DNA of 64,000 nt, from positions 1 through 64,000 of the IMG/VR virus record IMGVR_UViG_3300017917_003016; one strand, 5' to 3'. Below are positions 62,493 to 64,000 of this stretch, in pieces. The notes under the pieces are model-generated. The model was not told the DNA's origin. It did no database searches and saw nothing but the letters and a program-made list of their open reading frames with translations. This DNA is from a virus. Its lineage: Duplodnaviria; Caudoviricetes. Position numbers and translations under genes: made by a program. The first letter of the stretch is position 1, and each line of letters opens with the position of its first letter.

Positions 62493-62563
62493 GGTTGACA
62501 ACTAGATCCAAAGATCATATAATACTGAAACTGTAGTACAAAACACAATAACTTTTCAGGAGC
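62493..62563 (+). promoter_or_regulatory. Early promoter P7
   Basis: GG-TTGACA(62495)-N17-TATAAT(62518); CAGGAGC RBS. Confidence 0.9.
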
Positions 62564-62570
62564 ATAGACA

Positions 62571-63398
62571 ATGAAGACTACCACTCGTACTCGCGTTCGT
62601 ATTGCCAAGGCCCCGGTCAAGACTGAAGCCCAGCGCATGCAGGAGATTGCTGAACGTTTTGAAATCCTGGATGAAATGGCCAAGGCCACTACCAACGGTG
62701 ATATCCGTGCTATGATTGTTTCGGGCCCTCCGGGTGTGGGCAAGAGTTTTGGCATCGAGCGTGTTATTGACAAGGCTGTGTTGTTTGACCAAGTGGCCGG
62801 CAAGCGTCTGCGCTGCGAAGTGGTCAAGGGTGCTGCCAGTGCCATTGGCCTGTATACCACTCTGTACAAGTACAGTGATCCTAACTGTGTTGTGGTGTTC
62901 GATGACTGTGATAGCATCCTGTTGGACGATGTCTGTCTTAACCTGCTTAAGGGTGCACTGGACTCGGGCAAGAAGCGCCGCATTTCGTGGCTCAGCGACA
63001 GCAACATTCTGCGCCGCGAAGGTGTGCCTAATCAGTTCGACTTCAAGGGTGCTGTGATCTTTATCACCAACCTTAAGTTTGATGACATGAAGAGCAAGAA
63101 GTTGGCTGACCACCTTGAGGCTCTGCAAAGCCGTTGCCACTACATTGACCTGGCTCTGGACACTACTGAAGACAAGATTCTGCGTATCAAGCAGATTGCT
63201 GCTACTGGTGAACTGTTCCAAGATTATGAGTTTGATCAGTGCGTTCAGGACGAAATCATCGAGTTTATGACTACTAACAGCAGTCATCTTCGTGAAATCA
63301 GTCTGCGTATGGCCATCAAGATTGCTGACCTGCGCAAGAGTTTCCCTGTCAAGTGGCAGGCCCTGGCTCGTACTACCTGTATGAAGGCCGCGGCGTAA
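62571..63398 (+). CDS. AAA+ / P-loop ATPase
   Basis: Walker A GPPGVGKS; Walker B VVVFDDCD; IFITN; ALQSRC arginine finger. Confidence 0.88.
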   Translation: MKTTTRTRVRIAKAPVKTEAQRMQEIAERFEILDEMAKATTNGDIRAMIVSGPPGVGKSFGIERVIDKAVLFDQVAGKRLRCEVVKGAASAIGLYTTLYKYSDPNCVVVFDDCDSILLDDVCLNLLKGALDSGKKRRISWLSDSNILRREGVPNQFDFKGAVIFITNLKFDDMKSKKLADHLEALQSRCHYIDLALDTTEDKILRIKQIAATGELFQDYEFDQCVQDEIIEFMTTNSSHLREISLRMAIKIADLRKSFPVKWQALARTTCMKAAA

Positions 63399-63408
63399 TC
63401 AATTTTGT

Positions 63409-63520
63409 CTGAGGTAATAACTCCACGTGATAACTATTTTTTGCAGTACCTCGGCGCACTTTTTATTGTCTAGCTCCTAGTGCATCGAGTTTTAAGCCCA
63501 GAGTTTTCTCTGGGCTTTTT
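63409..63520 (+). ncRNA. Candidate structured 3' UTR antisense RNA
   Basis: Stems CTGAGGTA/TACCTCGG and GCACT/AGTGC; loop ATTGTCTAGCTCCT complementary to early RBSs; ends in a terminator. Confidence 0.4.
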
Positions 63521-63522
63521 TT
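63494..63522 (+). terminator. Rho-independent terminator
   Basis: AAGCCCAGAG-tttt-CTCTGGGCTTTTTTT. Confidence 0.9.
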
Positions 63523-63567
63523 ACCTTAACAGTTGCATTTGTTTTCAACAAACTATATACTAATAAG

Positions 63568-64000
63568 ATGACCAAATATTCATATGTTGAAGACTATCTA
63601 GAACTCCTAGCAGGCTACGAACCTAACAACCTGCTCAATCAGTTTACGTATTCTTTGCCAGGTAAGATAGTTAAACTGGCCCGTTATGACATCAGTGTGG
63701 TAGAAAACATGGCCAACAACACCATATGGGGTACTGCACTAACTGATCGTCAGGCGGAATTGGCAGTCAAGTTGATTTTGAAATATCGCAGACAATTTGC
63801 TGCCAAAGGTATAGATGTTAGTCCGGTTGAAACACCCACCTTTCGAATCCCAATTAGAAAAATTGATCGAACAAAGAGCATCATACTTGATCAAGATCTC
63901 GTAAAAATTAGATTTCCCTATGATCAAAAGTATATCGATGCCATGCAAAATTTGCAGAAGCAAAACAAAGGGCTAGTGACCTTTGATAGACACTCTAAGA
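63568..64000 (+). CDS. Hypothetical protein (3' truncated)
   Basis: MTKYSYVEDYLELLAG...TALTDRQAELAVKLILKYRRQF...; open to the window end; promoter TTGCAT-N17-TATACT at 63533-63561. Confidence 0.7.
   Translation, partial: MTKYSYVEDYLELLAGYEPNNLLNQFTYSLPGKIVKLARYDISVVENMANNTIWGTALTDRQAELAVKLILKYRRQFAAKGIDVSPVETPTFRIPIRKIDRTKSIILDQDLVKIRFPYDQKYIDAMQNLQKQNKGLVTFDRHSK

Follow-up and report, generated by a model that had tools for sequence, protein, structure and literature searches.

A conserved 3'-UTR hairpin complementary to the translation start of its own transcription unit, a candidate cis-repressing element of T4-like jumbo phages

Control of translation by a 3'-UTR sequence complementary to the Shine-Dalgarno (SD) sequence is known from a handful of single-species cases, of which icaR is the best known. 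In hok/sok, a message is kept untranslated by the pairing of its own 5' and 3' ends (fbi); the extreme 3' end of hok pairs with a 5' element, activation needs trimming of the 3' end, and the product is a small toxin with an antisense partner. In the T4 genes e, soc, 49 and I-TevI, local 5' hairpins hide the SD and so place translation under temporal control; the block is relieved by a late promoter located inside the hairpin. The icaR message of S. aureus carries a 3'-UTR anti-SD motif that pairs with its own SD region, blocks ribosome loading and creates a substrate for RNase III (PMC3868564). In a 2025 preprint, Gill et al. reported that anti-SD-like (aSD-like) 8-mers hundreds of nucleotides away from a ribosome-binding site pair with it, inhibit initiation and promote decay; this was shown in B. 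subtilis with synthetic substitutions, natural genes being depleted of such 8-mers (PMC12697547).

We analysed a window of 64,000 nucleotides at the start of a 201.7-kb IMG/VR virus record, itself estimated to be 56% complete. The window has a G+C content of 41.7% and T4-like features, and it carries a unit headed by the gene of an ATPase (Table 1). This protein matches phrog_1250, a family of unknown function, at 4e-81 over profile positions 71–327 of 327, and Pfam AAA weakly; it is without the N-terminal extension of about 70–80 aa that is present in most relatives. The ATPase is conserved in T4-like and jumbo phages. Its nearest cultured relative belongs to the Pseudomonas phage PA5oct (48% identity), and no nucleotide match was found in public phage DNA. 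Transcription of the unit is predicted to start near 62530, and the promoter (62495–62523) and the terminator bound a predicted transcript of about 990 nt (996 nt as folded). The 3' UTR of the ATPase is 125 nt long and folds with a z score of -3.73.

Table 1. Features of the ATPase unit, in positions of the window
Feature	Position	Strand	Details
Sigma-70-type promoter of the ATPase unit (predicted)	62495–62523	+	TTGACA-17-TATAAT, score 12/12
ATPase 5' UTR	62530–62570	+	about 40 nt, locally unusually unstructured
ATPase translation initiation region (TIR), 5' arm of the duplex	62558–62577	+	SD AGGAGC, bulged A62564, spacer TAGACA, AUG 62571–62573, next 4 nt
AAA-type ATPase of unknown function, 275 aa	62571–63398	+	ORF; phrog_1250; Pfam AAA (weak)
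3'-UTR hairpin	63450–63489	+	arms 63450–63460/63479–63489, 10 bp and one 1x1 mismatch, 18-nt loop 63461–63478
Anti-TIR sequence, 3' arm of the duplex	63460–63478	+	core UAGCUCCU at 63471–63478, 3' side of the loop
U-rich linker, hairpin to terminator	63490–63493	+	U-rich in nearly all relatives
Intrinsic terminator	63494–63523	+	10-bp G+C-rich stem and 4-nt loop (63494–63517), T run

A preliminary description of this locus had proposed that a segment of the 3' UTR pairs with the SD and start codon of the ATPase as a 19-bp duplex with one bulged A and two G-U pairs. Reading of the sequence gave exactly this duplex. Positions 62558–62577 read AGGAGCATAGACAATGAAGA, that is, the SD AGGAGC, a bulged A and then TAGACAAUGAAGA, while the reverse complement of 63460–63478 is AGGAGCTAGACAATAAAAA; the two arms form 6 + 13 = 19 pairs around the bulged A62564, with G-U pairs at G62573 and G62576 and an energy of -23.7 kcal/mol (RNAduplex). 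The left arm spans both the SD and the AUG, as had been claimed, and the anti-TIR arm indeed lies about 900 nt away and just before the terminator, on the same predicted transcript. The element had also been placed in the loop of a local GCACT/AGTGC stem; its location in the loop was borne out, the anti-TIR arm being the 18-nt loop of the 3'-UTR hairpin, but the stem is longer than had been claimed (10 bp). The terminator begins 4 nt past this hairpin. When the whole transcript was folded, the 5'-3' duplex was present in the MFE structure, in the centroid and in the base-pair probabilities, with a predicted P(SD-loop) of 1.0. The first 121 nt of the transcript have a folding z score of +1.89, with 198 of 200 shuffles folding equally well or better. 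This unusual lack of structure would leave the ATPase TIR open until its distant partner is made.

We then asked how exceptional the complementarity is within the record. Using a strict helix score between each TIR and the 130 nt past the stop codon, the ATPase scored 37, the highest value among the 282 genes of the record; 1 of 5,981 mismatched TIR/3'-region pairs reached 36, which corresponds to about 0.05 such genes expected per genome. A looser duplexfold energy, compared with shuffled 3' UTRs, gave p ~0.011 only. Since these single-locus statistics are only moderate, the case rests on comparative evidence. Two other accounts of the sequence were rejected. A repeated element does not fit a 14-mer that occurs once in the window, where approximate matches (up to 3 mismatches) are no more frequent than expected by chance and the covariance model described below gives a single copy, and a minus-strand gene does not fit an SD-like sequence that there precedes AUA and no start codon.

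Relatives were collected by an IMG/VR protein scan, and 80 loci with 72–77% identity were examined out of 253 relatives. From an alignment of 36 distinct copies with a hand-given structure we built a covariance model, R1, which finds the motif in about 50 of the 80 ATPase relatives and exactly once in the window (63438–63523, 48.6 bits). About 50 further IMG/VR contigs carry it, bringing the total to about 100 related contigs. In many of the relatives, the motif consists of a hairpin with a 12–21-nt loop, a U-rich linker and a terminator, followed by the next promoter. An exact search with a 15-mer of the window-type loop hit 73 IMG/VR contigs: in 33 the ATPase lies upstream, about 19 others are genuine elements interrupted by contig ends, and about 20 were discarded as chance matches in unrelated coding sequence. 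The loop core U(A)GCUCCU is invariant (T28 and G30–T35 in the 36-sequence alignment). In an R1-based alignment of 40 distinct relatives, which is fitted to the model and leans towards it, 12 of 13 stem pairs change on both sides and 93.8% of the stem cells are paired, versus 68% in shuffles (0/500 reach the observed value) and 39–52% when the partner is slid. The terminator helix is 99.6% paired, with compensatory changes. RNAalifold on a MAFFT alignment returned the terminator only, because the stem registers shift. Against Rfam, the window region gave a best match of 21.8 bits versus a gathering score of 50, below the family threshold; five relatives gave no matches, and no hok/sok match was obtained.

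The element is invariably on the same strand as the ATPase and precedes the first strong terminator reached from the ATPase promoter; its distance from the ATPase stop ranges from 16 nt to 3.8 kb, with insertions of small ORFs or of several genes in the gap. Where the inserted genes amount to 2.3–3.8 kb, the element still ends the unit that starts at the ATPase promoter, and in two relatives (L196 and L218) no strong terminator was found between the ATPase and the element. In these two and in the window, a consensus promoter upstream and a first strong terminator past the element put both partners on one predicted transcript. The spacing between the arms ranges from 0.9 to 4.9 kb across relatives.

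We next compared the loop with the TIR of the same locus. In the type A loci (the window, L196/208/219, L021/L180, L197/235, L214, L231, L185, L186, L218 and the L176 group), the TIR reads AGGAGC, then A, C, AA or nothing, then TAGACAAUG, and the loop reads UUGUCUAGCUCCU; the length variation is located at the unpaired bulge. Other lineages carry their own versions. The TIR AGGAGCCAACC of L057 is matched by the loop GGUUGGCUCCU, the TIR AGGAGCUGUUA of L056 and L028 by the loop UGAUAGCUCCU, and in the set L056, L028 and L058 the TIR AAAGGAGCUGUUAUG is matched by the loop UGAUAGCUCCUUU. Matching pairs of TIR and loop that differ between lineages are TAGACAA/UUGUCUA, CAACC/GGUUG and UGUUA/UGAUA. 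TIR/loop matches of 10–14 nt occur in L013, L046, L022, L016 and L030, and L012 has an additional, separate anti-AUG block, CAUUUAU, facing AUAAAUG. Type A and the L022 type differ at three spacer positions, each of which is compensated in the loop. Across 39 distinct TIR/loop combinations, own pairs have a mean energy of -15.85 kcal/mol versus -14.33 +/- 0.30 for permuted pairs (p ~5e-5, uncorrected for relatedness), and an ungapped column count of own versus permuted pairs gave p = 0.014, likewise uncorrected for relatedness. Among 12 distinct type A loci, 4 have the ATPase TIR as the best match to the loop across the entire locus and 7 have it among the top 3, out of 700–2400 windows on both strands; the corresponding binomial p, ~1e-14, assumes independence, and the cases are not independent. 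Of 29 whole units, partition functions gave a P(SD-loop) of at least 0.9 for 12, of 0.3–0.9 for 7 and below 0.1 for 10.

The covariation between ribosome-binding site and 3' UTR in orthologous loci that the preliminary description had put forward as a check was found in part: several lineages have matching variants, but in the majority of relatives the complementarity covers the SD core only (7–9 nt) and not the SD plus the AUG. In the largest group of relatives, the loop reads UUUUUG[U/A]UAGCUCCUUUUAC and the TIR flanks are variable, only 7–9 nt of the own SD being paired; conservation is higher in the loop than in these flanks. Presence of the element goes with an AGGAGC SD (47/1 vs 11/16, Fisher p = 2e-8), an association that is not significant after phylogenetic correction, where 2–3 of about 6 independent contrasts support it and none oppose it. 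In five large relatives searched whole, the own TIR was not outstanding, ranking 63–1887 genome-wide by duplex energy. Two relatives, L002 and L005, have the promoter and 5' UTR of the window in common but are without the window-type element. L002 keeps the same architecture with a different 19-nt loop; 8 nt of this loop complement the leader of L002 immediately 5' of the SD, a match with a chance of about 0.007 that we take as suggestive only. In PA5oct, an arm of a 3' hairpin can pair with the TIR (8 Watson-Crick and 4 G-U pairs) within a different architecture, and we treated this case as weak; the T4-like phage LPCS28 showed nothing comparable. An asymmetry of G-U over A-C juxtapositions, tried as a test of selection at the RNA level, reflected composition only (own 61/25, permuted 58.7/23.1), and a duplexfold-based count of it is biased. 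These comparisons, in which the complementarity is kept and in part covaries from one relative to another, make it likely that pairing of the 3' element with the TIR is under selection.

Like icaR, the phage message carries in its 3' UTR a motif that is complementary to its own SD. The phage motif UAGCUCCU has no sequence relationship to the icaR motif, UCCCCUG, and unlike the latter it is displayed by the loop of a hairpin that is conserved, covaries and immediately precedes the terminator. It also differs in belonging to an early unit of lytic jumbo phages, in being found with matching TIR variants in about 100 diverged contigs and in reaching over up to about 5 kb. Inhibition of ribosome loading, known for icaR, would in the phage follow from a thermodynamically predicted pairing, whose P is 1.0 for the window and 0.3 or more for 19 of 29 units. 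The conserved 8-nt core of the motif fits the rule of the 8-mers of Gill et al., from which the phage anti-SD differs in being positively conserved and structurally displayed. The module further resembles the enterobacterial 3'-UTR sRNAs CpxQ, SroC, MicL and MalH in its use of the parent terminator, its conserved seed and a U-rich stretch before the terminator, and the C-rich-loop sRNAs of Firmicutes, RNAIII and RsaE, in targeting the SD from a hairpin loop; unlike in 3'-UTR-derived sRNAs, the seed is in the loop rather than in a 5' single strand, and the best-conserved target is the parent message. As with the TIR-sequestering hairpins of T4, the phage SD is opposed by a complementary segment, but for the ATPase this is a distal 3' partner. 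The same genome also offers the local arrangement: a csgF-like gene, 55 kb from the ATPase locus, has its SD hidden by a local complementary segment.

We regard it as about an even call that the conserved anti-TIR 3' element uses base pairing, mainly in cis, to repress the leading cistron of the unit to which it belongs, and an icaR-like anti-SD 3' element repressing the first TIR of the operon is probably the best reading of the locus. The main argument for action in cis is the fixed place of the element at the end of the unit whose first TIR its loop matches. In the mechanism that we propose, the unstructured ATPase TIR would be accessible to ribosomes during synthesis of the message. Once the 3' end is transcribed, the loop (UUGUCUAGCUCCU) would pair in vivo with the first gene's SD and AUG on the very RNA that carries it, forming, in this phage, 19 bp over about 900 nt. 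The duplex would block 30S binding and would probably also be a double-stranded target for RNase III, the outcome being a limited yield of ATPase per message, in keeping with the logic demonstrated for icaR and for the B. subtilis 8-mers.

One of the findings against this repression of the own first gene, namely that the csgF-like TIR of this genome pairs with the loop better than the own TIR does, makes a serious rival of an alternative that the preliminary description had not considered and that we regard as possible, though on the unlikely side. According to it, the hairpin, the U-rich linker and the terminator accumulate as a stable RNA of about 85 nt that pairs in trans with several phage TIRs. 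This RNA would be processed from the early message or, in some relatives, be transcribed from a late promoter of its own. Its targets would include the ATPase message from which it derives, as feedback or shut-off of an early gene, and in this phage also the csgF/csgG-like cluster and a DUF4337 gene. The module does resemble a 3'-UTR sRNA, sharing the terminator of its parent message and presenting a conserved seed in an open loop with a U-rich stretch, and its loop is more conserved than any one TIR. When the loop was scored against 282 TIRs (mean -9.05, sd 3.8), the csgF-like gene at 118895 came out best (-30.0, 19 contiguous bp with one G-U and no bulge), followed by the own ATPase (-25.2), the DUF4337 gene at 139257 (-23.6) and a gene at 120278 (-23.0); the csgG-like gene between those at 118895 and 120278 ranks 7th, which puts three adjacent genes in the top 7. 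The TIRs of the early cassette rank 5–28 of 282. This match to the csgF-like gene is not conserved, however: two contigs with the same loop (L086/L191 and L089/L215) have a csgF-like TIR without complementarity, and the csgF and ATPase leaders appear homologous over about 35 nt, so that one leader cassette could explain it. As to an own promoter, about 10 type A relatives have a T4-late-promoter-like TAAATA 12–16 nt upstream of the hairpin, and in this genome NNTAAATA shows an enrichment of about 7-fold ahead of genes (about 47 copies 15–45 nt before starts vs about 7 expected), by which it behaves as a late-promoter motif of this phage; the motif of the window itself is GATAACTA, with a mismatch in the core. 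Action in trans is further weakened by the five large relatives, in which no TIR stands out as a target, by the shortness of the anti-SD, as 7–9 nt could not discriminate among many similar SDs, and by the strict linkage of the element to the 3' end of the ATPase unit, which a trans-acting gene would not need. The authors of the icaR study likewise left the choice between cis and trans open (PMC3868564), and the two are not mutually exclusive. Their combination, an undescribed family of giant-phage regulatory RNAs in which a hairpin of an early operon auto-limits its unit by 5'-3' pairing and a fragment of about 85 nt represses in trans, we consider unlikely.

It is more doubtful still, and in our view improbable, that the hairpin has another purpose to which the complementarity to the SD is incidental, such as a site for an RNA-binding protein or nuclease of phage or host, a stabiliser of the mRNA 3' end or one component of a compound terminator. 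Both loop core and architecture persist even where the extended match to the TIR is gone, and relatives without the element have other conserved large-loop hairpins in the same place, with the loop CAAUGUCAAUAAGU in one and 19 nt in L002, which suggests a generic structural slot. Yet the different loop of L002 is again complementary, over 8 nt, to its own 5' UTR beside the SD, matching variants of TIR and loop occur in at least three lineages, and a loop-exposed, pyrimidine-rich anti-SD 8-mer is an experimentally shown cis repressor that is otherwise depleted from genes (PMC12697547). The preliminary description had read the same duplex as a hok-type fold-back lock, in which the full-length message is inert until exonucleolytic trimming of the 3' end activates it, a timer. 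The complementarity of the 5' and 3' ends of one message is indeed shared with the fbi of hok, and the duplex evidence serves this reading as well as it serves repression in cis. The analogy nevertheless failed on several points: unlike hok, the gene encodes no small toxin but a 275-aa ATPase of T4-like and jumbo phages, the pairing element is an internal loop and not the extreme 3' end, and the open 5' region permits translation during transcription, before any lock exists. Activation by trimming is itself implausible, as the anti-TIR loop lies upstream of the strong 10-bp terminator hairpin, which would block 3' exonucleases and shield the element, and a lock of this kind is in our judgement highly improbable. 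Scarcely any weight, finally, is left for a chance complementarity or an inverted repeat acting at the DNA level, such as recombination sites on either side of a mobile or invertible segment. The single-locus statistics are moderate (p ~0.01) and the whole 64-kb window had been screened, but the complementarity is kept in about 100 contigs within a covarying RNA hairpin in front of a terminator; the motif is single in the window, the arm spacing varies between 0.9 and 4.9 kb, and the minus strand has no start codon past its SD-like sequence. The comparative data thus largely refute these last explanations.

Repression of the unit's own first gene through its 3' end would make this the first example of 3'-UTR anti-SD control with broad comparative support, extending over about 100 diverged contigs and a range of about 5 kb, and would offer a natural test set for the silencing of bacterial messages by distant anti-SD-like 8-mers. 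The consensus sigma-70 promoters make the system directly testable in E. coli reporters. The element is also a candidate phage sRNA with possible trans targets; if a family acting both in cis and in trans did exist, the RNA with its anti-TIR loop would be an early/late translational switch, its trans targets being a late curli-type CsgF/CsgG-like secretion cluster and the DUF4337 gene. For T4-related jumbo phages, the element would add a post-transcriptional layer to the control of early genes.

The ATPase locus in the window is not the only one at which a hairpin following the AAA-type ATPase gene carries sequence complementary to the gene's own leader or translation initiation region (TIR). 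Relative L002 has the window's promoter and leader in common, and its 3′ hairpin differs from the window's while the architecture is the same: eight nucleotides of its 19-nt loop (AAAGATTG) are complementary to its own leader directly 5′ of the Shine–Dalgarno (SD) sequence. In the nearest cultured homologue, a gene of Pseudomonas phage PA5oct, the 3′ arm of the hairpin that follows the gene is predicted to be able to pair with the SD-to-spacer region through 8 Watson–Crick and 4 G–U pairs. GenBank lists this gene as 'thioredoxin'; the label is apparently a propagated annotation error for an AAA ATPase. Comparison of window positions 62571–62620 with loci L003–L081 revealed that the ATPases of the window, L002 and L005 are missing an N-terminal extension of ∼70–80 residues that phrog_1250 and most relatives possess; the window's short ATPase retains the type-A TIR sequence, as found in full-length relatives.

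A second conserved hairpin, with a stem similar to AACGGG/CCCGTT and a 13–14-nt loop reading CAATGTCAATAAGT or a close variant, lies within the first ∼50 nt 3′ of the ATPase stop codon in L003, L009, L012, L014, L017, L018, L038 and L048, and immediately upstream of the anti-SD element in L013 and L046. L012, L013 and L046 carry both hairpins, the anti-SD element being the one farther downstream; the second hairpin shows no complementarity with the TIR. In about ten type-A relatives (L175, L192, L193, L196, L214, L218, L226, L229, L231 and L241), a TAAATA motif resembling T4 late promoters is found 12–16 nt upstream of the anti-SD hairpin. Hence, judging from the sequence, the hairpin could be transcribed separately, late in infection, in those relatives. 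The window has GATAACTA in place of TAAATA (63428–63435), and NNTAAATA is ∼7-fold enriched upstream of genes in the phage genome.

For the gene next after the ATPase unit, the −10 element of a promoter-like sequence ends ∼8 nt ahead of the ATG and there is no SD, which implies that its message would be leaderless or almost so. The same layout is kept in relatives, where the T run of the terminator runs into a TTGAC −35 element.

Coordinates of the genes and hairpins discussed
Feature	Position	Remarks
L002 3′ hairpin	L002 3346–3440	
PA5oct homologue	248735–249940	locus L104
Gene next after ATPase unit	start 63568 (window)	promoter-like TTGCAT-17-TATATA, region 63533–63570
Hairpin at csgF-like TIR	G000 118850–118897; L084–L103, near position 560–600	
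CsgF-like and CsgG-like genes	G000 (whole record) 118895–120263; locus L082 1396–2766	beyond the window; PF10614 (4.7e-11) and PF03783 (3.4e-50) matches, respectively

The TIR of csgF-like genes, considered in this phage as a possible trans target of the anti-SD loop, itself lies within a local hairpin whose arms covary from contig to contig and whose loop holds a late-promoter-like TAAATA. This is the arrangement of T4 e, soc and 49, in which the TIR is concealed in read-through RNA and accessible in late transcripts. A FecR-domain protein is encoded two genes downstream of the csgG-like gene, with a 259-aa ORF (G000 120278) in between. CsgF and CsgG are parts of a curli-type secretion channel, and such curli-type genes are an unusual cargo in a jumbo phage.
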